Assembly (NCBI GenBank): GCA_963775745.1
Contig: CAVZKE010000029.1
Location: forward strand, 51,959-115,958
DNA from: an uncultured Actinomycetota bacterium
Lineage (GTDB): Bacteria; Actinomycetota; Actinomycetes; Streptosporangiales; Streptosporangiaceae
Direction of reading: 5' to 3'
Length of the DNA: 64,000 bases
Positions 10,773 to 60,781 of this stretch are shown here, one piece after another. The translations under genes and the position numbers were made by a program. How positions within the stretch are numbered: the first letter of the stretch is position 1; each line of letters begins with the position of its first letter. The notes beneath the pieces are model-generated. The model was not told the origin of the DNA. It ran no database searches and saw only the letters and a program-made list of their open reading frames with translations.

Positions 10773-12910
10773 CGCGATGGCTCCGACATCCAGACGTTCA
10801 ACCTGAGCGGCAACGTGTCCAGCGGCGGAGTCGTCAAGGCGCTCTCGTCCCGGGTAGTGCGCAGTTTCATGATCTCCCTCACTGGGCCGCCGTAGTACGC
10901 GAGCTGTGACTGGGTGGCCGCAATGATCACCGGTCGCCGTCTGGCCCGCACTATGCCTTGCACGATCTCGTCCACTCGGTCGCGCCGCGGGTTTCTGAGG
11001 TATGCCGCCGGGTCACCGCACATCCCGCGGATGACCTGGGTGAACCTCTTGGCAATGCGGTAATTGACGATTACGACCGATGAGCCCCTGGGGATCGCCG
11101 CGCACATGTCGTCGACCGCCCCGATCTCGCCCCGATAGGTGGTCTTGACGGCCAGGCCATCCGCGGCCAGCCTGATCCCGAGCGGTCCGCCGTGCTTGAT
11201 TCCCAGACCGAACGTGGTTGCCGCAGTGGGCAACACCAAAGCCGCTGTGCAGCACGCCGCCAGGGCACCGCAGGTCAGTTGGCTAAAGCCACGCTGACGC
11301 AGTCGGCCGATGAGCCAGCCCGATGCCCAGACCGCAAGCAGGATCAGGCCGGGCAGCACGGCCGGAACGAGCCTGCGGCTTGCCCAGGGATGATCGGGAA
11401 TGATCGCGGGCCGGTACAAGAACGTGACAGTGCACCATGCGAACGTCATGAGGGGCAGCGTCCAGGTCGGCGCGCGGCCCCACAGGCACCTGCGCAGGAG
11501 CAACCCGGCCGCCAGCGTGCCGAGCGCCACGGCGGGAATCCCGATATACCAGAACACCCAGTGGAGGCTGTTCTCGTAGTACAGACGCGTCGGGTCGATC
11601 GGCAGGTGATCGGCCCGCTGGTAAGCGGCGACGGCGGCCTCGTTCTGAGCCGATTTGCCCCGCACCGTCTGCAGGTATGGGCGGATGGCGAAACCGATCG
11701 TTACCAGGAAGGCCAGCAGCGCGACGGCGTTGGGCAGCCACTTTCCGCGCACCTTCGGCACGCGGCGCCACAGCACTGCCACCGCCGCCGCTGTCACAAG
11801 AATCACCAACCCGCCCACCAGCCCCAGCGGAATCAGCGAACTGCTGATTTGGCTCAGGTACGGCCTGGACAGCACGATTCCGTCGACACCGCCGTAGGCC
11901 GCGCCGACAACCAGGCCGCCCAGCAGCGGAACTGCCTGCCGACGGCGGGACAGGAGCAGCACGCCGCAGTACGGGATCGCCGGCAGGATGTCGCTGACTC
12001 CATCGATGCGCACCAACACGGTCAGGCCGAGGGCGAGACCGCCAAGCGCCGCGGTGACCCTGGAGCCGATCCCGTCCGCGTCGAACGAGTCGATAACAAG
12101 GCAGAGCCCGCCAAGGAAGAGGATCTCCGCCAGCGGCTCGCTGAAGGCCGATCGGCTGGTGTACTGCTCCGGCAGTGAAAGCGCCAGGACGAGGGCCGCC
12201 AGCGGTGCCCACCGCGGCCCGACGAGCCGGGCCGCCAGGCCGCCAAAGGTGAGCACCGCGCATGCGCCCAGCGCCGCGGGCATCGCCACCGCCGCTCCCG
12301 GGCCGCCGATCCAGAATGCGGGCGCCAGGATCATCGGCAGCCCGGCCATGAACTGCGGCACTATCGCCGTGCCACGCTGGAAGAAAGCGGGGCTGCCGAA
12401 GGTGAGCAAGTTGTGGGCTCCGCCGAACGCCGCGCGATACTCCGGGATCGGCAACGAGCCGTGGTGGGCGATCCAGTAGCCGAACTGGACATAGGACGCC
12501 GGATCACGCGTGACGATGATGAACTGCGAGTGATAGATCAGCTGATCGACGCCGAACCCGACCGCTACCGCAACGACACCAGCGAGCGCCCACCATGGCG
12601 TGCGTGCCTGCTCCGGCTTGCGCACCGGCAGGGCGCCCTGCCACCGATCGGGGATCCAGCGCAGGCCAGACACCACGAGCAAAATGGTCAGCGGTACCCA
12701 AATCACCAGCATGAGCGTCGGCGTGAACCGGCCCGCAAGCAGCAGTGGCAGCCCGGCCAGCAACCAGGCCGTCGCCACCAACGCCGGCAGCACGGATAGC
12801 CGCCCCATCAGCCGACCGGGCCTATCGCCCGGATCGGCCGTCCGGCCGACGCCGTCGGGGACGCCAGCCGCCACGGGCTCCGTTCTCGCGGCCCGGGCGC
12901 CCGTGCTCAT
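10769..12910 (-). CDS. large polytopic membrane protein, probable GT-C-fold glycosyltransferase
   Basis: ORF 10769..12982; I prefer the start MSTGARA (ATG 12910-12908). It has more than 12 hydrophobic spans and a C-terminal soluble domain. ATGA overlap with the GT2 gene at 10769-10772. Confidence 0.72.
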   Translation of the reverse strand: MSTGARAARTEPVAAGVPDGVGRTADPGDRPGRLMGRLSVLPALVATAWLLAGLPLLLAGRFTPTLMLVIWVPLTILLVVSGLRWIPDRWQGALPVRKPEQARTPWWALAGVVAVAVGFGVDQLIYHSQFIIVTRDPASYVQFGYWIAHHGSLPIPEYRAAFGGAHNLLTFGSPAFFQRGTAIVPQFMAGLPMILAPAFWIGGPGAAVAMPAALGACAVLTFGGLAARLVGPRWAPLAALVLALSLPEQYTSRSAFSEPLAEILFLGGLCLVIDSFDADGIGSRVTAALGGLALGLTVLVRIDGVSDILPAIPYCGVLLLSRRRQAVPLLGGLVVGAAYGGVDGIVLSRPYLSQISSSLIPLGLVGGLVILVTAAAVAVLWRRVPKVRGKWLPNAVALLAFLVTIGFAIRPYLQTVRGKSAQNEAAVAAYQRADHLPIDPTRLYYENSLHWVFWYIGIPAVALGTLAAGLLLRRCLWGRAPTWTLPLMTFAWCTVTFLYRPAIIPDHPWASRRLVPAVLPGLILLAVWASGWLIGRLRQRGFSQLTCGALAACCTAALVLPTAATTFGLGIKHGGPLGIRLAADGLAVKTTYRGEIGAVDDMCAAIPRGSSVVIVNYRIAKRFTQVIRGMCGDPAAYLRNPRRDRVDEIVQGIVRARRRPVIIAATQSQLAYYGGPVREIMKLRTTRDESALTTPPLDTLPLRLNVWMSEPSR

Positions 12911-48295: not shown

Positions 48296-49465
48296 ATGAG
48301 CGTTGACTTTCCCGCGTTTGCCCTGACTCCGGAACTCCAGGCCCTCCGCGAGTCGGTGCGAGCCCTGGCTGATGAGAAAGTCGCCCCGTACGCGGCCAAG
48401 GCCGACGAGGCCGCGGCCTGGCCGCAGGAGGCGTATGACGCCCTGGTCCAGGCCGATCTGCAGGCCGTGCATATCCCGGAGGCCTACGGCGGCCAAGGTG
48501 CCGATGCCCTCGCCACCGTGATCGTCATCGAGGAGGTGGCGCGGGCCTGCGCATCGTCCGCGCTGATCCTCGCGGTCAACAAGCTCGGCACCGTACCGCT
48601 GCTGCTGGCCGGCTCGGAGGAACTCAGGCAGCGCTACCTGCGGCCGGTCGCCGACGGAGCGGCGGTGTTCGCCTACGCGCTGTCAGAACCCGAGGCAGGC
48701 TCCGATGCGGCCGCGATGAAGACGCGCGCCGTCCGGGACGGTGACAATTACGTTCTGAACGGGACCAAGCGCTGGATCAGCAACGCGGGCGTGGCCAGGT
48801 TCTACACAGTGATGGCCGTGACCGACCCGCAGGCCGGTCCCGCAGGGATCTCCGCGTTCGTGGTGGAAAAGGGTGATGACGGCTTCTCGTTCGGTGCGCC
48901 CGAGCACAAGCTGGGCATCAAGGGCTCGCCGACCAGGGAGCTGTACTTCGACAATTGCGTGATCCCGGCCGACCGCATGATCGGCCCGGAGGGCAGCGGC
49001 TTCCGTACCGCGCTGGCCACCCTGGACCACACCAGGATCACGATCGCGGCCCAGGCGCTGGGCATCGGCCAGGGGGCGCTGGACTACGCCATCGGCTACG
49101 TCAAGCAGCGGCAGCAGTTCGGCCGCGCGGTGGCGGAATTCCAGGGCGTGCAGTTCATGCTGGCCGACATGGCGATGAAGGTCGAGGCGGCCCGGCAGCT
49201 GACCTATGCGGCCGCCGCCCGCTCGGAGCGCGCGATGTCCGGCGAGCGCGTCCCCGACCTCACCTTCATGTCGTCGGCGTGCAAGTGCTTCGCCTCCGAC
49301 GCGGCGATGGACGTGACCACCGATGCGGTCCAGTTGCTCGGCGGCTACGGGTACGTGAGCGATTACCCGGTGGAGCGGATGATGCGGGACGCCAAGATCA
49401 CCCAGATCTATGAGGGAACGAACCAGATCCAGCGCGTTGTCATGGCCCGGCAGCTGCTGAAGTAG
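48296..49465 (+). CDS. acyl-CoA dehydrogenase (FadE25/isovaleryl-CoA dehydrogenase-like)
   Basis: 389 aa. AYALSEPEAGSDAA...GTKRWISNAG...QFGRAVAEFQGVQFMLADM...GGYGYVSDYPVERMMRDAKITQIYEGTNQIQRVVMARQLLK. Confidence 0.93.
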   Translation: MSVDFPAFALTPELQALRESVRALADEKVAPYAAKADEAAAWPQEAYDALVQADLQAVHIPEAYGGQGADALATVIVIEEVARACASSALILAVNKLGTVPLLLAGSEELRQRYLRPVADGAAVFAYALSEPEAGSDAAAMKTRAVRDGDNYVLNGTKRWISNAGVARFYTVMAVTDPQAGPAGISAFVVEKGDDGFSFGAPEHKLGIKGSPTRELYFDNCVIPADRMIGPEGSGFRTALATLDHTRITIAAQALGIGQGALDYAIGYVKQRQQFGRAVAEFQGVQFMLADMAMKVEAARQLTYAAAARSERAMSGERVPDLTFMSSACKCFASDAAMDVTTDAVQLLGGYGYVSDYPVERMMRDAKITQIYEGTNQIQRVVMARQLLK

Positions 49466-49636
49466 CGCGGCGGCCGGCGTTTCCGCTGGTCAGCGCCCTG
49501 GGCCTGGGGCCGCCCGCCCCGCCCAAGCGGGCGGGTCTGCAGGCGGTCATCGGGGCCGGGCGGCTCGGCGCTTTGCCCGTTGTTCCCGGTTGGTTCCCGT
49601 CGTTTCCCAACGCGGTGCTGGATCCGTGCTGACCCC
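49397..49636 (+). repeat. copy A (native) of the repeated gene-end module: the last 69 nt of the acyl-CoA dehydrogenase CDS plus about 170 nt downstream
   Basis: Aligned by eye to 52136-52373 and 56741-56976 (see findings). Confidence 0.9.
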
Positions 49637-49780
49637 CTGGGCGATCATGGCGTGCATATCTTGGCGCGGTGGCCGCGGCCATGGTTGTCGTTGCCGCAAG
49701 CTGTCCACGACGGCACTGAGTTCACCTGGGCGGCGGAACCGGATGTGGTGTCGCTAGATCCGCCGTGTGGAGACGCCCGA

Positions 49781-49855
49781 GGCGGACTGACACTCTTGAT
49801 AATGAGCGGTCTGTAAACCGTCGGCTCAGCCTACGCAAGTTCGAACCGCCACCAC
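49781..49855 (+). pseudogene. tRNA-Tyr(GTA)-like remnant, not foldable as an intact tRNA
   Basis: ggcggac...gagcggtCTGTAAaccgtcggctcagcctacgcaaGTTCGAAccgccACCA. It has an anticodon-loop-like CTGTAA(A), a long-variable-arm-like cggctcagcct, a T-loop GTTCGAA and a ccgcc-ACCA end pairing with 5' ggcgg. The D-arm and the 3' half of the T-stem are missing and the loop is 1 nt short. Confidence 0.35.
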
Positions 49856-50194
49856 CTGCGGAAACGGGCCGTGAGCTGGGATTTCCCGGCTATGCGGGCC
49901 GTTTCCTTTGTCCCGTGGCGTGTCACCTTGTAGCGCTGCGCGCCGGCGTGTTGCGGTGTCCACGGACATATAGCGGACGGGAATCGGGGCCAGGGAGCGG
50001 TGTGTCTAGCCGCTCGCTGGCGCGGATCTGCCCGCAGCGTGCCTGGGTCCGGGGTGTTCCGGCTCACGTTCGCTGCTGGCTCGCCCCGGCCGCGACGCCC
50101 GCTGATCCAGGCCGTGGCCGCGAGCTGCCCGAGCTGCTGCGCGGCCAGTGCCGCAGCCCGGCCTGGCTGGCCGGCAGGGCGGCAGACCGCTGAT

Positions 50195-50225
50195 TTGACC
50201 TTGACCCTGGGGGAAGCCGCACAGT
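50195..50225 (+). promoter_or_regulatory. candidate MerR-type promoter: TTGACC, a 19-nt spacer, then CACAGT upstream of the MerR-family gene
   Basis: ttgacc at 50195-50200 (duplicated at 50201-50206) and cacagt at 50220-50225. The GTG start at 50266 is preceded by GAGGGAG. Confidence 0.25.
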
Positions 50226-50265
50226 CTGGGGAGCCGGGTGTCGGCCCGGCACGAGGGAGCCGTCC

Positions 50266-51123
50266 GTGGACTTGATGAGCATCGGTGAGTTCGCCAGGCT
50301 GTCCCGCCTGTCGCCCAAGGCGCTGCGCCTGTATGACGAGCTGGGACTGCTGCCGCCCGCCCAGGTCGATCCGGCCTCTGGTTACCGCTGGTATGCCGCC
50401 GGTCAGCTGGACAGTGCCCGGCTGGTCGCGTCGCTGCGCCAGATCGGAGTGCCGCTGGCGCAGATCCAGCTGATCCTCAGCCTGGAGCCGGAGGCCGCTG
50501 CGGCGCAGGTCGGCGCTTACTGGTCAGGGGCTGAAGCCGATCATGCTGCCCGCCGGGACCTGGCCGGCTACCTCGTTGACCGCCTGACTGGAAAGAGGAA
50601 CGTCATGCACGAGGTCAAGGTCCGCGATATCCCCGCCCGCAGCCTGCTCTGCCTGCTGCGGCATGCCAGCAATCAGCAGGAAGTCTGGGACATGGGCAAG
50701 GAGGTCATCGGCATGCTCAAGGCCCAGCCGGTGCCGGTGCCCCGCATCGAAGGAGTCGCCGGGGCCGCGTTCCTGATCTACTACGGGGAGGTGAACCAGG
50801 ACAGCGACGGCCCGGTGGAGTTCTGCTGGCCGGTGCCGCAGGACCTGGCCGGCCAGCTCGCCGCCAGCTTCCCCGGGCTCACGCTGCGCACTGAGCCTGC
50901 GCACCAGGAGGCGTGCGTTCACCTGGACCAGGACGCGACGGAGGCGCAGTGGCAAGCCGCCGGGGACTCGGCCTTGGCCTGGGCGGCCGGGCAGCAGCGC
51001 CAGCCCAGTGACCTGGGCCTGCGCGTTACACTCCTGACGACCGCCGCGCCAGTGACCGATGCCAGCAGGCGCGGCGGCAGCGACTTCGCCCTCCCGCTGC
51101 GCGACCGGGCCGGCGCCGCATGA
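50266..51123 (+). CDS. MerR-family transcriptional regulator with a GyrI-like effector-binding C-terminal domain
   Basis: MSIGEFARLSRLSPKALRLYDELGLLPPAQVDPASGYRWY (MerR HTH) plus a domain of about 150 aa, ...VKVRDIPARSLL...FLIYYGEV. Confidence 0.85.
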   Translation: MDLMSIGEFARLSRLSPKALRLYDELGLLPPAQVDPASGYRWYAAGQLDSARLVASLRQIGVPLAQIQLILSLEPEAAAAQVGAYWSGAEADHAARRDLAGYLVDRLTGKRNVMHEVKVRDIPARSLLCLLRHASNQQEVWDMGKEVIGMLKAQPVPVPRIEGVAGAAFLIYYGEVNQDSDGPVEFCWPVPQDLAGQLAASFPGLTLRTEPAHQEACVHLDQDATEAQWQAAGDSALAWAAGQQRQPSDLGLRVTLLTTAAPVTDASRRGGSDFALPLRDRAGAA

Positions 51124-51213
51124 AGACCACAGGCGTGATCTATGACGCGGGGACTGATGGTCAGCGGCGGTACGTGCGCGCGGCCGGCGATCCGGACCCG
51201 GAGGGGTACTTCG

Positions 51214-51777
51214 ATGCGAGTGGTTGACATCGTGCTCGGCGTGGGCTGGGTCATCTTCTGGGTGGGCTGGTTCGCCGCATCCGCCGGGGCTAAGCGGGGA
51301 CAGCGGGGACGGGGCAACTGGGCGCGCTTCGGGGGCGTCCGGGTGGCGCTCATCCTGGTCGTCGTGCTCCTGGTCCGGCTGCGGGTGCTGCAGGGGCATG
51401 GCGTCGGATACGTCACAGACCCGGTCCTGCGGGGCGTCGGCCTCGCCATCTGGGTCCTCGGCCTGGGACTGGCCGTCTGGGCGCGGATCTACCTCGGCCG
51501 GAACTGGGGAATGCCGACGTCCACCAAGGAAGACCCCGAGCTGGTCACATCCGGCCCGTACCGGATGATCCGGCACCCGATTTACACCGGCATCCTGCTG
51601 GCGATGATCGGCTCGGCGATCGCCGTCAGCGTCTGGTGGCTGATCGCCGTGGCACTGATCGGCGGGTACTTCATCTACAGCGCCTTCGTGGAGGAACGCA
51701 ATCTGACCAGGCTCTTCCCCGGTGCCTATCCGGAGTACCAGCAGTCCACCAAAATGCTGATCCCCGTTATCTTCTGA
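51214..51777 (+). CDS. isoprenylcysteine carboxyl methyltransferase (ICMT/PEMT)-family membrane methyltransferase
   Basis: Internal start MRVVDIVLG of ORF 51142..51777. Motif LVTSGPYRMIRHPIYTGILL, 4-5 TM spans. Confidence 0.8.
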   Translation: MRVVDIVLGVGWVIFWVGWFAASAGAKRGQRGRGNWARFGGVRVALILVVVLLVRLRVLQGHGVGYVTDPVLRGVGLAIWVLGLGLAVWARIYLGRNWGMPTSTKEDPELVTSGPYRMIRHPIYTGILLAMIGSAIAVSVWWLIAVALIGGYFIYSAFVEERNLTRLFPGAYPEYQQSTKMLIPVIF

Positions 51778-52064
51778 GGACGCGCGGCGCGTGCTGGCGG
51801 GATGGGCCGCGGCCGCGCTGCTGGCCGCGGGGCCTGCGCGGTGCCTGAACCGGATCCCGGTCCGGGTGCGGAGGTCCGCAGCCGGCCGGGCCGGTCAGCG
51901 GTCTGACTTTCGTGCTCCGGCAGTCCCGCTACGAGACGGTCAAGGACGGTGGCGTCTGGCGATGGGGTCGAAGGAGACGGGTCCTGCCGCACCCACCGCG
52001 AGGCCGACGGCACCGCCATGTGCGATTCCTACACGGCTGACTATTTCGCCCGAAACTAGTCCGG

Positions 52065-52373
52065 GTGCTGGAACCGTGCTGACTCAACACCCCGCCGCAC
52101 GCCATCTACCTGCGGAAACTGACCGCCGCTCGACGATCACTCAAATCTACGAGGGAACCAATCAGATCCAGCGCATGGTCATGGCCCGGCATCTGCTGAA
52201 GTAGCGCGGCGGTCGGCGTTTCCGCTGGTCAGCGGCCTGGGTCTGGGGTGGCGCCTCGCCCATGCGGGCGGGTCTGCAGGCAGTCATCGGGGCCGGGCGG
52301 CTCGGCGCTTTGCCCGTTGTTCCCGGTTGGTTCCCGTCGTTTCCCAACGCGGTGCTGGATCCGTGCTGACCCC
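52065..52373 (+). repeat. copy B of the gene-end module, including an orphan acyl-CoA dehydrogenase 3' end (...ITQIYEGTNQIQRMVMARHLLK*, stop 52202-52204)
   Basis: 52136-52204 matches the native CDS end with about 9 mismatches in 69 nt. 52264-52373 matches 49527-49636 at 109 of 110 positions by my manual alignment. Confidence 0.9.
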
Positions 52374-52376
52374 AGG

Positions 52377-52760
52377 TCAGCCCGGCACCCTGGGCTGACG
52401 TTCCGTGTGTCGCTCGATCTCGCCCGCCGGCACCGCCTTGGGCCCGTAAGCAGCCCAGCCGCGCGCGGCTGTAAGCGACACCCACGCGGTGACCGGGTAG
52501 ATGATCCAGCCGTTCCACACGTTGGGGGTTCCAGAGCGCTGGCTGAACCCTTCGGTCGGCCAGCCACCCGCATGCTTGTACTCCGTAGCGGCCCAGATCG
52601 GAACCAGGAGAGCCACGCCAACGGCGGACGCAGTGGTACTGATCTTGAACAGTCGCCTGGCCCTGGCCTGCTTGATCGCCTGCTGGCGGGCAATCTGCTC
52701 GCTGTCGTCGGCAGCAGCTAAGCCTGCGTCCGCGGGCCTGTCATCAATGAGGTGGACCAT
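52377..52760 (-). CDS. 2TM-domain membrane protein
   Basis: 127 aa. ...QQAIKQARARRLFKISTTASAVGVALLVPIWAATEY...WIIYPVTAWVSLTAARGW. Paralogue of 53326..53709. Confidence 0.75.
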   Translation of the reverse strand: MVHLIDDRPADAGLAAADDSEQIARQQAIKQARARRLFKISTTASAVGVALLVPIWAATEYKHAGGWPTEGFSQRSGTPNVWNGWIIYPVTAWVSLTAARGWAAYGPKAVPAGEIERHTERQPRVPG

Positions 52761-53325
52761 GTCGGCACCTCTCTTCCGGAGCGAGCCGTTTCTGCTAAGG
52801 CTCCACCGGCTGCAGGATTGACCTCCGAACGCCGGCCAGCTAGTGCCATAGGTCAGCCGCTGCCCGGCGAGAGCCCTGAGTTATCGCAATGTGCCGGTGT
52901 CAGCGACGATGTGCTGTCCTGTCCCGCGCGGCGGGTCGGCTCGACCCGTCCTGAGAGCCGCCGCCAGCTGCCAGGTGACGACGTGGTGCGCTGTCCGCAC
53001 CGCGCCGCGCCGCTGGAGGTTGACCATGGCGCGGGTGCCTCCGCTCGCGTCGGCCTGCTCCATCAGGGCGACGCTGCATGGCCTGAAACAGCGCGCGGAA
53101 ACGACACGACGCCAATGACCAATCTGTTCGAGCGGCTCAGCCTGCGGAAACTGCGTCATGCGTGACTTCCCCGGCCACTGAACGAACTGCTGATCTTAAG
53201 CCATTCGTCGGCGGACAGGTGACGTACGGCGCTGCCAGTTCAGCGACTGGTGATCGATCCTTGAACGTGGGAGCGGGATTCCATCACGGTTAACCAGCTC
53301 CCAGAGCGAAGAAGGAGGGGTCGAG

Positions 53326-53709
53326 ATGACGAACCTTGTCGATGACAGGCGTGCAGACATCGACTCGAGTGTGCCTGCCAGCAGCGAGAAGCTTGCCCGC
53401 CAGGAGGCTATTAAGCAGATTGAGCGCAGGCGCCGGTTCAAGGTCAGCACGGTCGTGTCCGGCCTCGGCATGATCATCCTGGTGGCGATCTGGGCCATCA
53501 CCGAGTACCACAACGCGGGCGGCTGGCCGGTTCACGGGTTCAGCCAGAGTTCCGGGATCCACGACGTGTGGAACTTCTGGATCGTCTACCCGGTCGGTGC
53601 GTGGGTGTTCCTGACTGCTGCGTTCGGCTGGGACGTTTACCGGCGCAGGTCTATCTCGGAGAGTGAGATCAAGCGCGAGATGGAGCGCCAGTCCGGCCCG
53701 TCCAGCTGA
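53326..53709 (+). CDS. 2TM-domain membrane protein, inverted paralogue of 52377..52760
   Basis: 127 aa. ...RQEAIKQIERRRRFKVSTVVSGLGMIILVAIWAITEY...WIVYPVGAWVFLTAAFGW. The RBS-like GAAGGAGGGG lies upstream. Confidence 0.78.
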   Translation: MTNLVDDRRADIDSSVPASSEKLARQEAIKQIERRRRFKVSTVVSGLGMIILVAIWAITEYHNAGGWPVHGFSQSSGIHDVWNFWIVYPVGAWVFLTAAFGWDVYRRRSISESEIKREMERQSGPSS

Positions 53710-54001
53710 TTGCCCGGTGCCGCTCAGCCGACACCGCATCGCGCGCACAGCGGATGTTCTTCCCCATGGAGGAACGCGGGCCGCCGTGGCCTCGTCCGCT
53801 GCCTCTACTTCGTCCCGGAAGAAATAGACGGTCTTGGCTTCGTCGGAAGCCAGGTCAGCAGGAAGCGTCATGGTCAAAGCCGGCCGTTCCTCGGACGAAG
53901 GCGGTCTCCGGACCAGTCGCTGCAACTGCTGTAGGGCTTGTCAACGGCCAATTTGCAGTCCCCGCTGGTGGCCAGTTAAAAGTCCCCACCCCTCGGGCTG
54001 A

Positions 54002-54778
54002 TCATTTCTTGGTCAGGACGGTTCCTCCTCGTGCTCGGGCCTGGCGCATGCGGAACGATTCGCCGTCTGTGATCACGACGTTCGCGTGGTGGAGCAGGCG
54101 GTCCAGGAGGCTGACGGCGGTGGTGTGCTCGGGCAGGAATCTGCCCCACTGGTCAAACGGCCAGTGGCTGGCCACGCCGAGGGCCCGGCGTTCGTAGGCG
54201 GCGGAGACGAACCGGAACAGCAGCTGGGCTCCGGTGTCGTCGAGCGGGGCGAACCCGACTTCGTCGACCAGGAGCAGGTCGTTGCGGGGCAGGTTCTCGA
54301 TGACGCGGCCGGCCGAGTTGCCGGCCAGGCCGCGGTAGAGGGTCTCGGCCAGGTCAGCGGCGGTGAAGTAGCGGACCTTGTGCCCGGCATGGACGGCGTT
54401 GATGCCGAGGGCGACCAGGACATGGCTCTTACCGGTGCCGGCCGGCCCGACCAGGCAGAGGTTCTCCCGGGCGGTGATCCATTCCAGGGACGCGAGGTAG
54501 TCCAGGGTGGGGCCGGGGATGGAGCACGCGGACCGGTCGAGCTCGTCGAGGGTCTTGGTGACGGGGAACGCGGCGGTCTTCATCCGGGTCGCGGCGCTGG
54601 AGGCATCGCGGGCGGTGATCTCGGCGTCGATCAGGGTCCGCAGCAGTTCCTCGGGTGCCCACCGCTGGGTCTTGGCGGTGCTGAGCAGCTCGGGGGCGAG
54701 CTGGCGGATGGTGGAGAGCTTGAGCCGCCGGAGCCCGGCGGCGATGTCGGGCGCCAGCGGCGGCGCGGCGGCTGTCAT
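54002..54778 (-). CDS. istB: IS21 helper ATPase IstB
   Basis: 258 aa, intact. Walker A LVGPAGTGKSHV and Walker B LLLVDEVG. ATGA overlap with istA. Confidence 0.92.
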   Translation of the reverse strand: MTAAAPPLAPDIAAGLRRLKLSTIRQLAPELLSTAKTQRWAPEELLRTLIDAEITARDASSAATRMKTAAFPVTKTLDELDRSACSIPGPTLDYLASLEWITARENLCLVGPAGTGKSHVLVALGINAVHAGHKVRYFTAADLAETLYRGLAGNSAGRVIENLPRNDLLLVDEVGFAPLDDTGAQLLFRFVSAAYERRALGVASHWPFDQWGRFLPEHTTAVSLLDRLLHHANVVITDGESFRMRQARARGGTVLTKK

Positions 54779-56237
54779 GACAGCGCCCCGATCGCGTAGT
54801 CGGCCAGCGGGCGGACCGGGACGGCCGGCAGGTCCAGGATCAGCGCGTCACCGGCCGGGACCTGGGGCTCGGGCACACCGGCCCCGGCGGCCAGGATGGA
54901 CCGCACGTCAGCGGGCCGCCACCGGCAGAACGCGACCGCCCGGTCCAGCGCGGCCAGGAACTCTTCGCCGCCGTGGGCGGCGCGCAGCGTGTTCAGCTCG
55001 GCCAGGTCCGTGCCGAGCCGGGTGCTGCCGGCTGCGGCGGCGCCGGTGATGAACGCCTCGGCGACCGGGCCGAGTGAGCAGAACTCCTTCTCCGCCGCGG
55101 TCTTCGGCCGCACTGCCCGCCGGGGCGCGGGCCGCGGGCCGCCGTAATGCTCATCGCGCACGGAGGCCTCGCCCGGGGCGATGAGGGTGTGCTCGGCGAT
55201 GACCTCCCCGGTGGTGGTCATGATCACCAGCAGCCGCCCGTCATCGGTGCGCAGCCGCACCCGCGAGCCGATCAGGCGGACGGGCACGGAGTAACGGGCT
55301 GATGCGAATCGGACACATGCCAGCCGGTCGACCTTGCGGGTCACGAACCTGCCGATGCTGGTCCGCAGCGACGGCAGCGGCGCCAGCAGCTCCCGCTCGA
55401 TCACCAGCCGCTCCGCGGGCACCGCGCAGATCTCGCTATGAGTCGCGCCGTTGACCTCGGCGCACCACGCCCGCGCCGCCTCGTTCGCCGCGGTGAAGCC
55501 GCCGAACGGAGCCTGCGGCACGAGCAGGTCGGCCTTGGCATAGCCGACGAGGTTCTCGACGATCCCCTTCGATTCCGGGTCGGCGGCCTCGCAGAAATCG
55601 GGCCGGAACCCGTAATGGCCGGCGAACCGGACGTACTCCGCCGTGGGCACCACGACGTTGGCGACCACACCGCCCTTCAGGCAGCCCATCCGGTCCGCCA
55701 GCACCTTGCCCGGCACCCCGCCGAGGGTCTCGAAGCACTCCGCCAGCATCGCCAGCGTCGTGCCGGACCGCTCATCAGCGGCGAACCGCACGAAACCGGG
55801 ACCAGGCCAGCACCGCGCAGAACACGTGCAGGCCGCCCTCGGCACCCCAGGCCGGTCACCAGATGCTCACCCGGAGACCAGACCGCCTGCCGGCGGCCAC
55901 GGTGATGCTCCCGGCGCCACAGCCGCTTCCGCTCCGCGACCAGCCGGCGGAAGTTCCGCGCCGACCCGGCATACCCCGCCGCCCGGGCCGCCGGCAGCAG
56001 CCGCTTCGCCGAGATCCGGCCCGACGTCTTCCCCACCCGCTCGGCGACCAGCTCTGCGACACCGTCATAGTTATGCCCCCGCACAGCGCGCTCCGGCACG
56101 CCGCCACCGGCCTCGTGCCGGGCGATCACCCGTTTGACTGTCCTATGCGTGGTACCCGTGACCTCCGCGGCCCCGCGGTACGTGCCCACCTCACGGTAGG
56201 CCGAAATGATGTCCATCCGATCCCTCGCAGACTTCAA
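54775..56237 (-). pseudogene. istA: IS21 transposase IstA with at least two frameshifts (about 55.80 and 55.86 kb)
   Basis: N-terminal frame ...ISAYREVGTYRGAAEVTGTTHRTVKRVI...WSPGEHLV. Middle frame WGAEGGLHVFCAVLAWSRFR. C-terminal frame FVRFAADERSGTTLAMLAECFETLGGVP... Confidence 0.85.
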
Positions 56238-56669
56238 TGGAAGCTCCCCGGGCGGTGCGGTGACTGACTGACACCGCCACCGTCACCGCCCGGGCCTCAA
56301 CCCCCGGGACGACACGACGAACGAGGGATGGGGACTTTTAACTGGCCACCAGCGGAGACCTCGACCCGGCCACACATGGGGACTTTCTCATGGCCACGGA
56401 CAAGGGCTTGTTCGGCTGCTGGGATCTGCGAACTAGCCCCTCCACGAGACTTGCTCACTGTCTCACCCCGTTCTCTGCCACAGATCACGCCTAGGAAACT
56501 CTGAGCTAACAAGGCGCACGGTGCAACGCATTTGGCAACGTCATCTGCTTCTGACTCCCGCGCCGCATCTGGCTGCGCCGGGCTCGGCGATCGTTGGCGG
56601 GTCGATTCAGCGCCAGAACTGCGGGCGGCATTCCTACCAGGAACGTCGCGTTACACCTGACACTGCCGC

Positions 56670-56976
56670 GTGCTGGATCCGTGCTGGCTGCTGGCTACCG
56701 GACATGCCGTCTACCTGCGGAAACTGCCCGTAGCTCCGGTATCACGCAGATCTACGAGGGCACGAACCAGATCCAGCGCGTGGTCATGGCCAGGCAGCTC
56801 CTGAAGTAGCCGGGCCGTCAGCGTTTGCGCTGGTCAGCAGCTATCTCTTGGGCGGCGCCTCGGTCGTGTGGGTCGGTCTGGGGCCGGTCGGGGGCGGGCC
56901 GGACGGTCGGGCGATATGCCCGTTGTTCCTAGTTGGTTCCCGTCGTTTCCGGACCGCGTGCTGAGTTTGTGCTGAC
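56670..56976 (+). repeat. copy C of the gene-end module, including an orphan 3' end (...ITQIYEGTNQIQRVVMARQLLK*, stop 56807-56809); the downstream part is clearly more diverged
   Basis: 56741-56809 aligns to 49397-49465. The downstream blocks gcgtttgcgctggtcagc, tgcccgttgttcctagttggttcccgtcgtttcc and gtgctgagtttgtgctgac are conserved. Confidence 0.85.
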
Positions 56977-57206
56977 CCCTGGGGGTCGCTACGGGGCGGC
57001 CATCATGATCTGGTCCCTGTCGGCTATCCATGGCGGCGCGGGGCTGACCCAGGTGGCCGACACGGACGAAGGCCCGCCACCTACGACAAGAGCATCGTCG
57101 AAGTCAGCATCTGCACTCCCGGGGACTGCCGGCGGCGTGTCCTGGTCACGGTGGCCAGGACCGGGCCGGAAAGGCACGCTTGGAATCAGCGAGCGGCCAT
57201 CGCGGT

Positions 57207-57628
57207 ATGCGTGACCGTGGGCACAGGACTGTGCCGCATACCGCGGACTTGCGCATCGAGGGGTGGGGGCCGACCCGGGAGGATTGCATCGCCGAAGCGC
57301 TGCGTGGCCTGGTGGAAAGCTTCGCCGATGTCAGCGGGACCCGATACCAGCGGGTCACTGGTGTCATGTTTCCGCCGGTTCCGACGCCGACCTGCTCGCT
57401 GCCGCCATCGAGGAGGTCATCTACGGCCTGGACACTGGCGGGGAGATCCCGGCCGCCGTTGAGGTGAGCCGCGCTGCTGATGACGGGATCGACCTGATGT
57501 TGCGGGTCGTGGATGCCAGCGCGGTGGAAATCGTCGGCGCCGCGCCCAAGGCTGCCTCGCTGTCCGGGCTGAGCTGTGCCCCGGCAGCGTCCGGGCGGTG
57601 GTCGTGCGCTGTGACGGTCGATGTCTGA
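57207..57628 (+). CDS. archease; one frameshift near 57370
   Basis: MRDRGHRTVPHTADLRIEGWGPTREDCIAEALRGLVESFADV...RVTGVMF, then one frame over, AGSDADLLAAAIEEVIYGLDTGGEIPAAVEV...LMLRVVD...SCAVTVDV*. Confidence 0.8.
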
Positions 57629-57717: not shown

Positions 57718-59136
57718 TCAGCCTTTGATCACGCCGAGTGGCACGAGCCGGGCGATCTTACGGCACAGGCCGCCGCCTTCGGCGGCTTCCACCACGGCGT
57801 TGACGTCTTTGTAGGCTTCGGGGGTTTCCTCGGCCAGCCCGCGGGCCGATGCGCCGCGCACCGCGATGCCCGCCGCTTCCAGCCGGTGCCGCAGCTGGGT
57901 CCCGTTGACGGTGCGCTGTGCCTGGTGGCGGCTCATCACCCGGCCCGCGCCGTGGCAGGTGGACGCGAACGCACCGCCACCGGGGACGCCGGCCAGCACG
58001 TAGGAGTAGGTGCCCATGGATCCGGGGATCAGCACCGGCTGGCCGGCCACCTGCAGGTCCTGCGGCAGGTCCGGGTGCCCGGGCGGCAGTGCCCGGGTGG
58101 CGCCCTTGCGGTGCACGCACAGCAGCTTCGGCTGCCCGTCCACGGCGTGGGTTTCCATCTTCGCCAGGTTGTGGGACACGTCGTAGACGAGGTCGAGCCG
58201 CGCGCCGGCCGTCTGGCGGAAGATCTCGCGGGCAGTGTGGGCGAGGACGTGGCGGTTGGCGCGGCCGTAGTTGGCGGCTGCGGCCATGGCGCCCAGGTAG
58301 CCGCGGCCCTCGGGGGAGGTGACTGGTGTGCAGGCGAGCTGGCGGTCGGGCATGTGGATGCCGTAGCGCGGCATGGCCTGGTCCATGATCCGCACGTGGT
58401 CGCCGCAGATCTGGTGGCCGAGCCCCCGTGAGCCGCAGTGGATCATGACGCAGACCTGGCCGTGGCAGAGCCCGAACCGCTGCGCGGTGACAGCGTCGTA
58501 GATCTCCTCGACCGCCTGCACTTCCAGGAAATGGTTGCCCGAGCCGAGGCTGCCCACCTGGTGCAGGCCCCGGTCGATGGCCCGGGTGCTGACCTGGCCG
58601 GGGTCGGCGCCGGCGACAGCGCCCTCATCCTCACAGCGCAGCAGGTCACGCTCGGTGCCGTAGCCCTGCTTGACCGCATAGCGGGCGCCGTCGGCCAGCA
58701 CGTCCCTCATCTGGCCCGGGCCGGCCAGATGCCAGATGCCTCCCCGGCCCGCGCCACGCGGGACAGCGGCCGCGAGCTGGTCCATCACGGCGCCCAGGAC
58801 CGGCCTGACCTCGTCTCGGTCCAGGCAGGCCGCGAGCAGGCGCACACCGCAGGAAATGTCGAACCCCACCCCGCCGGGGGAGACCGCCCCGCCGGCCGCC
58901 GGATCGGTGGCCGCGACCCCGCCGATCGGGAACCCATACCCCAGGTGCACATCGGGCATCGCATACGACGCCGTCACAATGCCCGGCAGCGCCGCCACGT
59001 TGGCCACCTGCTGCAGCGAGCGGTCCGCAGCCAGACCTAGCAGGAGCTGCCGGGAGACATATACGATCCCTGGCACCCGCATCGCTCCCCGCTGCGGGAT
59101 CCGGAACCGGTAGGGGGTTTCCTCGACCAGTTCCAT
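57718..59136 (-). CDS. rtcB: RNA-splicing ligase RtcB (3'-phosphate/5'-hydroxyl RNA ligase)
   Basis: 472 aa, intact. [55 protein letters not shown]...HRKGAT, PGSMGT, CHGAGR. Confidence 0.93.
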
Positions 59137-59546: not shown

Positions 59547-60781
59547 TCAATCAGGCATGTCGGCTGGGTGCACGGTGTAGTTCCATTCCCCGTGGAACTC
59601 GTGCGGGGTGACGTGGCGTTGGAGCAGGTTCTTCATCTCCCGGTCAGGGATCTTGATTCCGCGCGGATAGGCGCCGGTGTCGCGTTCGGCACGCACGGTC
59701 AGGCCGGTGCGGGTGGTGGTCCCGGCGATGAGGTTCACCGCGACCTCGTGGCTGGTCAGCGGCTGCCCGGCCCAGTTCATCGAGATGTGGCTGAACAGCC
59801 GGTGCTCGATCTTGTTCCACTTGGACGTGCCCGGCGGCATGTGGCAGACCGTGATCGCCAGGCCGGTCTCGGTGGCCAGGGCCGCCAGTTCCTTCTTCCG
59901 CAGCCGCAGCCGGTAGCCGTTGGAACCGCCCGCGTCTGCGGTGACCATGAGCCTGGCCGCCTGCGGATACGCGGCGGCGCCGACGGTGGACCACCAGCGG
60001 CGGATGGTCTCGACGGCGAACTGCCCGGTGTCTCCGTCGCAGCCCACCGATACCCAGCCAGTGTCGGCGGCCAGGTCGTAGACCCCGGAGGGCACCGCCT
60101 TGCCCTGTTCGCCGGGGAAGTCGTGCACGCCGGCGCGGCGTGGCTCGCCGGCCGGTCGCCAGGCCCGGCCCTTGTTCGCGTACTCGCCGACCGTTTCTTT
60201 CTTCTTCGCGTCCACGCTGATCACCGGCTCGCCTTCGGCCAGGCAGGCAGTGACCTGGCCGTTGATGTAGCGGAACTGGGCGTCCCGGTCTGCGTGCTGC
60301 TTTGCTTCCACGGTCTTGGCGCTGGCCTGCATGCGGTAGCCCAGCGGTCCGCTCAGCAGCCGGCCGACGCTGTGGCGGGACACATGGTGCCCCTGTGCCG
60401 CCAGCTCGCCGGCGAGGTTGCGGGTCGATCTGATGGTCCAGCGCAGCCGGCTCATCGGGTCACCCCGGGTCTCGGGCTCGACCAGCGCGTCCAGGGCGTC
60501 GAGCAGGCCGGGGTCGGTCTCGGTCAGCGGTTTGCGGCCGGCCCGGAGCGCCGGGCACGCCCGGGCATCGCGTCCCCACCGCCTTCCAGCTCCCCGACCC
60601 CGGCAGTGATCGTCACCCGGGATACCCCGGAGGCACGCGCCACCAGCGAAATCCCGCCGTGTCCCAGCGAGCGGGCCTCGGCGGCCAGCACCAGGCGGCG
60701 CTGCCGCTCGTCCAGGTGCGGCACGATCGCGTCGAACTTCGCCGAAAGGACCCGCTCGTCGATCTCCATGACCAGTGCCAT
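59547..60781 (-). pseudogene. ISAzo13-family transposase, one frameshift near 60.55 kb
   Basis: N-terminal frame MALVMEIDERVLSAKFDAIVPHLDERQRRLVLAAEARSLGHGGISLVARASGVSRVTI. The rest reads ...KPLTETDPGLLDALDALVEPETRGDPMSRLRWT...SVDAKKKETVGEY...VTADAGGSNGYRLRLRKKELAALATETGLAITVCHMPPGTSKWNKIEHRLFSHISMNW. Confidence 0.85.

Follow-up and report, generated by a model that had tools for sequence, protein, structure and literature searches.

In a 64,000-nt stretch of contig CAVZKE010000029.1 from an uncultured bacterium of the Streptosporangiaceae (hereafter the window), the 3′ end of a fadE25-like acyl-CoA dehydrogenase (ACAD) gene occurs three times and brackets two small blocks of cargo. We conclude that this arrangement is very probably a tandem array of non-autonomous islands, located at an attachment-site hotspot for a family of tyrosine-integrase elements that use the end of the fadE25-like gene. 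An initial annotation of the window had proposed that integrative elements target this 3′ end and accrete in tandem, every insertion supplying a new end for the gene. The proposal is supported by relatives carrying an integrase beside the same module, by empty sites and by the reshuffling of cassettes among genomes.

Three copies of the ACAD gene end

The target gene (48296–49465, plus strand) is intact up to its C-terminus and contains the Pfam domains Acyl-CoA_dh_N, Acyl-CoA_dh_M and Acyl-CoA_dh_1. It lies 3′ of purK-purE, a synteny also found in relatives. Sensitive self-BLASTN, with 48–58 kb queried against the whole window, aligned the gene end (copy A, 49396–49636) to copy B (52135–52373) with 92.5% identity over 241 nt (E = 6e-80), the identity being 98% over the final 122 nt. 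Copy B (52044–52376) aligned to copy C (56651–56982) with 75% identity over 337 nt (E = 6e-62), and A (49397–49641) to C (56741–56983) with 77% identity over 247 nt (E = 2e-46). The same three-copy pattern was recovered by a repeat search and MAFFT alignment, and the sensitive self-BLASTN gave no fourth copy of the module elsewhere in the 64 kb. The threefold occurrence of gene end plus downstream DNA noted in the initial annotation is borne out by these alignments (E values from 2e-46 to 6e-80), as is the description of B and C as orphan ends lacking a gene body. Both orphan reading frames conform to ...ITQIYEGTNQIQR(M/V)VMAR(H/Q)LLK* (the asterisk denoting the stop codon), B ending in ...ITQIYEGTNQIQRMVMARHLLK and C in ...ITQIYEGTNQIQRVVMARQLLK, and the ACAD body lies upstream of neither. 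The 5′ limit previously given for the orphans held only in part: resemblance to the gene is indeed weak there, but a further ~90 nt on the 5′ side (from 52044 and 56651) is shared between B and C and conserved among orphan copies. Mini-open reading frames of the type ITQIYEGTNQIQR...LLK* in these genomes are best annotated as attachment-site scars, not as genes.

Architecture of the repeated unit

Alignment of the window copies with copies from related genomes (loci designated by L numbers) delineated a discrete unit of ~312 nt. From 5′ to 3′, the unit is composed of a 5′ motif, an extension of ~50 nt holding the conserved box TCTACCTGCGGAAACTGCCC, the last 22 ACAD codons with the stop codon, a non-coding part of ~150 nt (N) containing three phased GTT(T)CCC repeats, a 3′ motif and CCCC. 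The motif that flanks each unit is a 19-nt double hexamer, GTGCTGGAWCCGTGCTGRC. Searched as GTGCTGGATCCGTGCTGAC, it gave four matches at no more than three mismatches against 0.07 expected. It is found at the 3′ end of A (49615) and B (52352), in degenerate form at the 3′ end of C (56958), and at the 5′ end of B (52065) and C (56670); the motif search found no 5′ motif at the gene-attached copy A.

All three copies are on the plus strand. Copy A comprises the final 22 codons and stop codon of the gene (49397–49465), the proposed attL core, followed by N (49466–49639), the proposed P′ arm, with its three phased repeats, the motif at 49615–49633 and CCCC. Copy B (52044–52376) is a full unit, with the 5′ motif at 52065–52083, the extension at 52084–52135, the orphan coding end at 52136–52204, N at 52205–52376 and the 3′ motif at 52352–52370; it would serve both as attR of island 1 and as attL of island 2. 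Copy C (56651–56982), the putative attR of island 2, has the 5′ motif at 56670–56688, an extension, the orphan coding end at 56741–56809 and a divergent N (56810–56982) with the degenerate 3′ motif at 56958–56976. In terms of attachment-site arms, B has both, A the P′ arm and C the P arm.

The outer edges of the unit are sharp. All downstream contexts in the aligned copies diverge straight after GTGCTGACCCC, and conservation is lost just upstream of GGTGCTG in 97 distinct orphan sequences from metagenome and genome loci. Inside the unit the short phased repeats are conserved and the spacer between them is poorly conserved. The sharp edges and phased repeats together suggest protein-binding sites rather than neutral homology; by reason of their phasing and position, the double hexamers and GTTCCC repeats are putative arm-type binding sites for an integrase (Int) and an excisionase (Xis).

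A pattern specific for the extension matched at least 120 contigs from soil metagenomes, in which the cargo is different. Nearly every metagenome copy begins at the 5′ motif and either continues through N (‘long’) or ends at the stop codon (‘short’), short orphans without the 3′ motif being common. A 19-mer from N occurred at 27 loci in the genome collection, ~17 of which carry the module (Streptosporangiaceae, Trebonia and uncultured Actinomycetota metagenome-assembled genomes (MAGs)). Gene-attached copies carry N and the 3′ motif (P′ arm), and the distal orphan carries the 5′ motif and the extension (P arm); at sites whose native downstream DNA differs from N, this orphan often takes the short form (L096, L100, L130 and L131). 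This assortment of arms matches what a lambda-type attP would be predicted to give.

Two further sequence elements were noted in and around the unit. A 12-nt box, ACCTGCGGAAAC, occurs eight times in the window at no more than one mismatch against 0.21 expected, with sites at 49854, 52108, 56713 and 53140 (plus strand) and at 49479 and 52218 (minus strand). Sites fall within the extensions of B and C, within N of A and B (in inverted orientation, just past the stop codon) and between two genes of island 2 for two-transmembrane (2TM) proteins; a copy also stands ~400 nt upstream of the MerR gene of island 1, likewise in L158 and L159. The box could be a candidate binding site for a recombinase or a regulator. 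A fourth, decayed unit ahead of MerR (~49.82–49.90 kb), hinted at by the box at 49854, was rejected, as a profile search gave only a 12–19-nt box that scored no better than shuffled sequences. In other Streptosporangiaceae MAGs, the P′-arm tail (GTTGGTTCCCGTCGTTTCC-N8-GTGCTG-N5-GTGCTGA) is present just 3′ of an ABC-2 permease gene (L008:2838-2933) and half of it 3′ of a response-regulator gene (L025:6160-6204); such tails could represent sister attachment sites or scars that have moved.

Complete elements with a tyrosine integrase

Clustering of the predicted proteins of the unit loci revealed a 372–381-aa protein encoded directly upstream of the orphan 5′ motif, with the stop codon of its gene (int) inside the motif (..CGG TGC TGA ATCC..). 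Pfam identified the protein as a tyrosine integrase (Phage_integrase, SAM-like and central domains) and the product of the preceding gene as an excisionase-like HTH_17 protein (xis). The integrase has 434 relatives at E ≤ 1e-40 and is at most 30% identical to annotated plasmid or phage integrases. Integrase-bearing relatives of the window are L070, L073 and L153–L156. In L153/L154 the order is ACAD, attL, AbiEii, PadR, ABC transporter, APH(6), xis, int and attR, forming a 9.7-kb element in which attL (coding end, N and motif) occupies 1365–1614 and attR (motif, extension and coding end) 11139–11277. The same order of ACAD, attL, cargo, xis and int was seen in L155 and L156 in contexts with 10-kb flanks, and the cargo between attL and HTH_17/int in the complete relatives spans 7–9.5 kb. 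The integrase-linked relatives that the initial annotation had envisaged, carrying the same module, were found in L153–L156, with the tyrosine integrase and HTH_17 protein behind ACAD. No replication genes and no FtsK/TraB-type transfer genes were present among the Pfam matches of L153–L156 or of the window islands.

Empty sites and reshuffled cassettes

The ACAD orthologues of L002–L005 (90–93% protein identity) retain the purK-purE-ACAD order and share only the coding end with the window, followed by unrelated genes. None of the four has an orphan within 10 kb, and the N module is absent from L002, L003 and L004. Such loci are unoccupied sites, and the polymorphism between empty and occupied sites that had been looked for among related genomes does exist (L002 and L004, with a single gene end and no module). 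The original flank cannot be reconstructed because the downstream genes of L002–L004 differ. ACAD ends in LLK* in the window (49463–49465) and in L001, and in LLKG* at the unoccupied loci L002 (11171–11173) and L004 (11168–11170); L153 has LLKG* at the gene and LLK* at the orphan. An element-borne end can therefore alter the last residue.

Cassettes are found in different orders and combinations across genomes. The integrase-less cassette that ends on the right with a gene for a 408-aa protein has differing right-hand neighbours in the window, L028, L030, L094, L101 and L080. An APH-PhyH pair follows the ACAD gene in L012 and the 408-aa gene cassette with its orphan in L028, L030 and L042, position differences that imply different insertion histories at the same site; the arrangement of 408-aa gene and APH was found in three independent assemblies. 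At L130:1965-2802 an orphan unit stands only 474 nt past the gene-attached copy, an almost empty ‘cassette’ that is consistent with deletion of cargo between arm motifs.

Position and nature of the exchange

Identity between the window and its relatives is mosaic. Compared with L026, the window is 75–84% identical in the ACAD body and 93–100% identical from ~49536 through MerR. Compared with L028, it is 99–100% identical through the right end of island 2 and ~23 nt into the coding end, and 68–79% identical thereafter. L028 corresponds to window copy C on its left and to L012/L030a on its right, the switch falling within a 17-nt interval (CAGATCTACGAGGGCAC) of the shared coding end. This mosaic places the junctions inside the unit and would put strand exchange within the coding end; the predicted exchange region in copy A is 49403–49419 (CAGATCTATGAGGGAAC).

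An improbable alternative is that homologous recombination built the array. DNA of relatives would enter by conjugation or transformation, and RecA would use the ~240–310-nt units as portable homology, by Campbell-type insertion of a circle or by a double crossover between flanking units, and the integrase would play no part in the islands that lack it. The breakpoints do fall where conservation is highest, which is also where homologous exchange would be resolved, most cassettes are without an integrase, and the units are 75–98% identical over 240–330 nt within and between genomes, the high end of which would suffice for RecA. The attL and attR of the complete element in L153, however, share ~68 nt at ~80% identity with a longest perfect run of 15 nt, which is too little for RecA and argues for site-specific recombination. 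The sharp outer edges, the phased repeats set in a poorly conserved spacer and the dedicated int-xis pair physically coupled to the unit also speak against a RecA-driven process.

Very unlikely is a scheme in which the 19-nt motif is itself the recombination site, so that cargo and 290-nt gene-end blocks are separate cassettes swapped motif-to-motif in a somewhat attC/integron-like manner. All cargo and gene-end blocks of the window are bounded by the motif in direct orientation, contexts diverge exactly at its outer edge, and the closely spaced orphan of L130 (474 nt after the gene copy) would fit; but the exchange mapped with L028 lies in the coding end and not at the motif, short orphans that end at the stop codon are common, the gene lacks the 5′ motif, and the scheme cannot account for a gene end after each cargo.

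Least credible of all, and largely refuted, is the old segmental duplication that the initial annotation had named as an alternative, in which the gene end and downstream DNA were triplicated locally and the gaps later filled by unrelated insertions with no site-specific system: A and B are 98% identical over the last 122 nt, the window has no integrase and an IS21-family element shows that ordinary insertions happen at the locus, yet the orphans group with cargo across genomes and not with the resident gene copy, the non-coding part of B being closer to the gene-attached copies of L001 and L026 (95–97%) than to A and the left half of C being 99–100% identical to L028, whose right half differs, while the 5′ extension and motif of B and C are not in the gene, the extension is conserved in at least 120 metagenome contigs whose cargo differs, an integrase adjoins the 5′ motif in relatives, and empty sites and other cassette orders exist.

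A model for the array

For the preferred interpretation, an array of islands at a tyrosine-integrase hotspot, we propose the following mechanism. The site would receive small (~2–10 kb) integrative elements moved by the tyrosine integrase and its excisionase-like HTH_17 partner. The attB would be the last ~70 nt of the fadE25-like ACAD gene, and attP a site of ~312 nt consisting of the motif, the ~50-nt extension (P arm) abutting the int stop codon, the gene-end core and a ~150-nt P′ arm that ends in the same motif. A single crossover in the coding end would insert the element, rebuild an intact gene end and displace the old end downstream as an orphan, and repeated insertion would yield a tandem array. 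The window would contain two such elements in tandem, both having lost int and xis and island 2 having been additionally interrupted by IS21. The islands might still be mobilised, but only through an integrase acting in trans or through a newly accreted autonomous element.

Loss of the integrase appears throughout the family. Seventy-nine orphans have 1.2 kb or more of sequence on their upstream side: five of these are preceded by a full int, seven by a C-terminal fragment and 67 by none. The 3′ stub of int was measured for 105 orphans and was 0 nt long in 28, 1–30 nt in 38, 31–60 nt in 10, 61–120 nt in 17 and 121–299 nt in seven, with a full gene in five; stubs of 31–299 nt are therefore present in 34 of the 105. 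This continuum indicates that int-xis loss by deletion is common in the family. With an integrase-less share of ~85%, the family is a natural system for the persistence and spread of non-autonomous islands.

A number of observations weigh against the proposed origin of the window array. No homologue of int or xis was detected in the 64-kb window, where tblastn at E ≤ 10 returned only noise; together with Pfam, this result bears out the earlier remark that no integrase or excisionase survives in the islands. The 60 nt upstream of the motifs of B and C are not significantly like int 3′ ends (z ≤ 1.9), the resemblance covering 37 nt at C, without significance, and nothing at B. Because no significant stub is present at B or C, the descent of the window islands from integrase-bearing elements is argued by analogy only, and nothing in the sequence appears to indicate their present mobility. 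L028 is a single clean recombinant, and the crossover interval rests mainly on it because few discordant pairs appeared in the population-wide mapping. N of copy C clusters with the copies attached to the gene in L014 and L023; it may be native DNA and not an arm of an element, or it may be the arm of a third element since lost. The block of MerR and methyltransferase genes that fills most of island 1 (window 49820–51837) occurs with 94–99% nucleotide identity, without the module and with sharp edges at unrelated loci (L157:9915-11844, L158:1-2019 and L159:9679-10880), and its high identity between the window and L026 may derive partly from slow evolution or separate mobility. Among the complete relatives, an attR was not found after int in L155, and the next unit in L156 lies 2.7 kb past int. 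The comparison sequences are mostly metagenome or MAG contigs and carry a risk of chimeric assembly because repeats invite misassembly.

A broader and rather doubtful extension of the model is that the fadE25 end acts as a gene-capture platform in soil Streptosporangiales-like actinobacteria, in which one Int/Xis pair, found in a minority of genomes or elements, would serve in trans a large pool of integrase-less cassettes, each tagged with a portable ~312-nt attP-like unit with two sets of phased repeats in its arms. Such a platform would be a functional parallel to the integron, built on a lambda-type attP and the end of a housekeeping gene, and additional docking sites would be marked by the arm tails of L008 and L025 and by isolated ACCTGCGGAAAC boxes.

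Cargo of the islands

Island 1 (cargo 49640–52043, plus strand) has on its left a segment that is non-coding and conserved (49640 to ~49820), followed by a MerR-PEMT/ICMT block (~49820–51837), in which MerR is encoded at 50266–51123 and a PEMT/ICMT-like methyltransferase at 51142–51777. Pfam confirmed these two genes, and likewise the previously described inverted 2TM pair with IS21 in island 2. The tRNA-Tyr-like remnant reported for the first cargo block was not sustained: ARAGORN found no tRNA in the window and Rfam found no tRNA-like match in 49300–57300 even at E ≤ 5, and a tRNA-Tyr remnant or a tRNA-targeting island was rejected. The view of MerR-ICMT as island cargo holds insofar as the block lies between A and B, but the genes are a conserved pair that also resides at unrelated loci in other genomes. 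The pair is widespread, with 2616 proteins at E ≤ 1e-60 falling into more than 120 clusters at ≥89% identity. The block represents chromosomal DNA that was captured, or else a unit with mobility of its own. An integrase-linked progenitor of island 1 was not found in the three MerR(-ICMT) contexts fetched, which show other loci without the module and without the family integrase. The non-coding stretch after the 3′ motif (49640–49820, extending to 50001 in L001) is common to eight genomes (L001, L016–L019, L026, L027) regardless of what follows it, and several genomes stop matching the window near 49810–49860, the position at which the MerR block starts in L158 and L159.

Island 2 (cargo 52377–56650) contains two inverted 2TM genes (52377–52760, minus strand, and 53326–53709, plus strand), an N-terminal remnant of the 408-aa gene and the IS21-family element. 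The 2TM genes are diverged paralogues that face each other as a 328-nt inverted repeat of 71% identity, and the first of them has its stop codon directly against the end of unit B. The cassette is the same as in L028, L030 and L042, where the 408-aa gene abuts the unit. In the window this gene is truncated and split by IS21 (~53778–53941 plus 56403–56512, minus strand), and it is intact in L030. The right end of the island is 99–100% identical to that of L028. The IS21-family element (~53942–56402) has inverted repeats at 53958–53995 and 56322–56359 and a target duplication of ~9 bp, and it is missing from the otherwise 99% identical L028. IstB is encoded at 54002–54778 and IstA at 54775–56237; the element is probably inactive because istA is split over two frames (54775–55845 and 55677–56237).

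Cargo and neighbours at the hotspot in other genomes are often defence- or stress-like, including AbiEii, ParE/Phd, APH-type kinases and a NACHT/STAND NTPase (examples at L153:1629-2309, L148:1638-5021, L004:11250-11833 and L153:12094-14184). At one hotspot locus a NACHT/STAND NTPase of ~1,120 aa is the sole cargo.

Two features lie beyond the array in the window. The archease gene (57180–57628), beside rtcB (57718–59136, minus strand), is split over two overlapping frames (57180–57467 and 57263–57628), a split that reflects a frameshifted pseudogene or else an error of assembly. A few kb past the array, an ISAzo13-type DDE transposase (PF07592, E = 7.5e-125) is encoded at 59547–60455 on the minus strand; a 53% identical copy adjoins an orphan unit in L074.

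Relation to known integrative elements

We found no element targeting an ACAD 3′ end in the literature. A Mycobacterium abscessus prophage in a FadE gene was dismissed as a precedent, its serine integrase acting at nt 280 inside the gene and being unrelated. The family is soil-wide and so far undescribed, belongs to a known kind of element and uses an attachment site that is itself new, the last ~70 nt of the fadE25-type ACAD gene, and its integrases are a new tyrosine-integrase lineage for actinobacterial mobile elements. It is abundant in soil metagenomes (at least 120 contigs, and the 434 integrase relatives at E ≤ 1e-40). The compact attP, the phased repeats and the int stop codon within the arm motif make the system easy to test experimentally, and it could provide a new integration tool for the poorly tractable Streptosporangiales.

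As in other genomic islands, the flanking direct repeats (attL/attR) contain the target 3′ end and the ACAD C-terminus is left intact. A tyrosine recombinase gene beside the attachment site is absent from the window and present in L070, L073 and L153–L156, which makes the window islands putative derivatives and not autonomous members. Inside their att-like boundaries no recombination or transfer genes were found by Pfam analysis of the island reading frames or by tblastn with int and xis. The two islands, lacking int and xis, are non-autonomous and probably integrase-less derivatives of the kind known as cis-mobilizable elements (CIMEs). An integron, or a cluster of attC sites lacking integron-integrases (CALIN), was rejected: the repeats are ~312-nt gene-end copies with a direct-repeat motif and not attC hairpins, and exchange falls in the coding end. 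The tycheposons of Prochlorococcus are likewise tyrosine-recombinase elements stacked at one gene end, with partial target repeats and many cargo-only, integrase-less members; they differ in their marine cyanobacterial hosts, tRNA targets and other recombinases.

Among actinobacterial systems, the integrative and conjugative elements of actinomycetes (AICEs) pSAM2, SLP1 and pMEA300 (PMC2440964, PMC3218068) share the tyrosine integrase, the Xis-like HTH protein and the restoration of the target 3′ end. Their targets are tRNA genes, and they possess Rep together with FtsK/TraB-type transfer genes, neither of which is seen in L153–L156; lacking replication and transfer genes, these are not AICEs. 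PAISt of Streptomyces turgidiscabies (PMC4057263) shows the same site-specific insertion at the 3′ end of a protein gene (bacA) in an actinobacterium, with internal att copies and modular excision. PAISt is conjugative and large and uses a palindromic site of 8 bp, whereas the present elements measure 2–10 kb, have a ~70-nt gene-end core with arms and show no transfer genes. The ssrA islands of Dehalococcoides (PMC3146451) and SGI1 at the trmE 3′ end (PMC2297512) similarly occupy the 3′ end of a conserved single-copy gene, with a direct repeat of that end and tandem stacking, but their targets are tmRNA or trmE, their integrases are of another lineage and usually kept, and their repeats are of ~18–20 bp.

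CIMEs and accretion-mobilisation in Streptococcus (ICESt1/ICESt3; covered in a review of IMEs, PMC5704250, and listed in ICEberg 2.0, PMC6323972) provide the same att-flanked islands without int, xis or transfer genes, likewise stacked behind a protein-coding gene at its 3′ end. CIMEs are presumed to descend by deletion from autonomous elements, as is proposed for the window islands, and to be mobile only with the integrase of a partner. The present family, whose mobilisation is putative, differs from them in its actinobacterial host, its new target gene, its autonomous relatives without a conjugation module, and the long repeat (240–312 nt) with its two-arm architecture.

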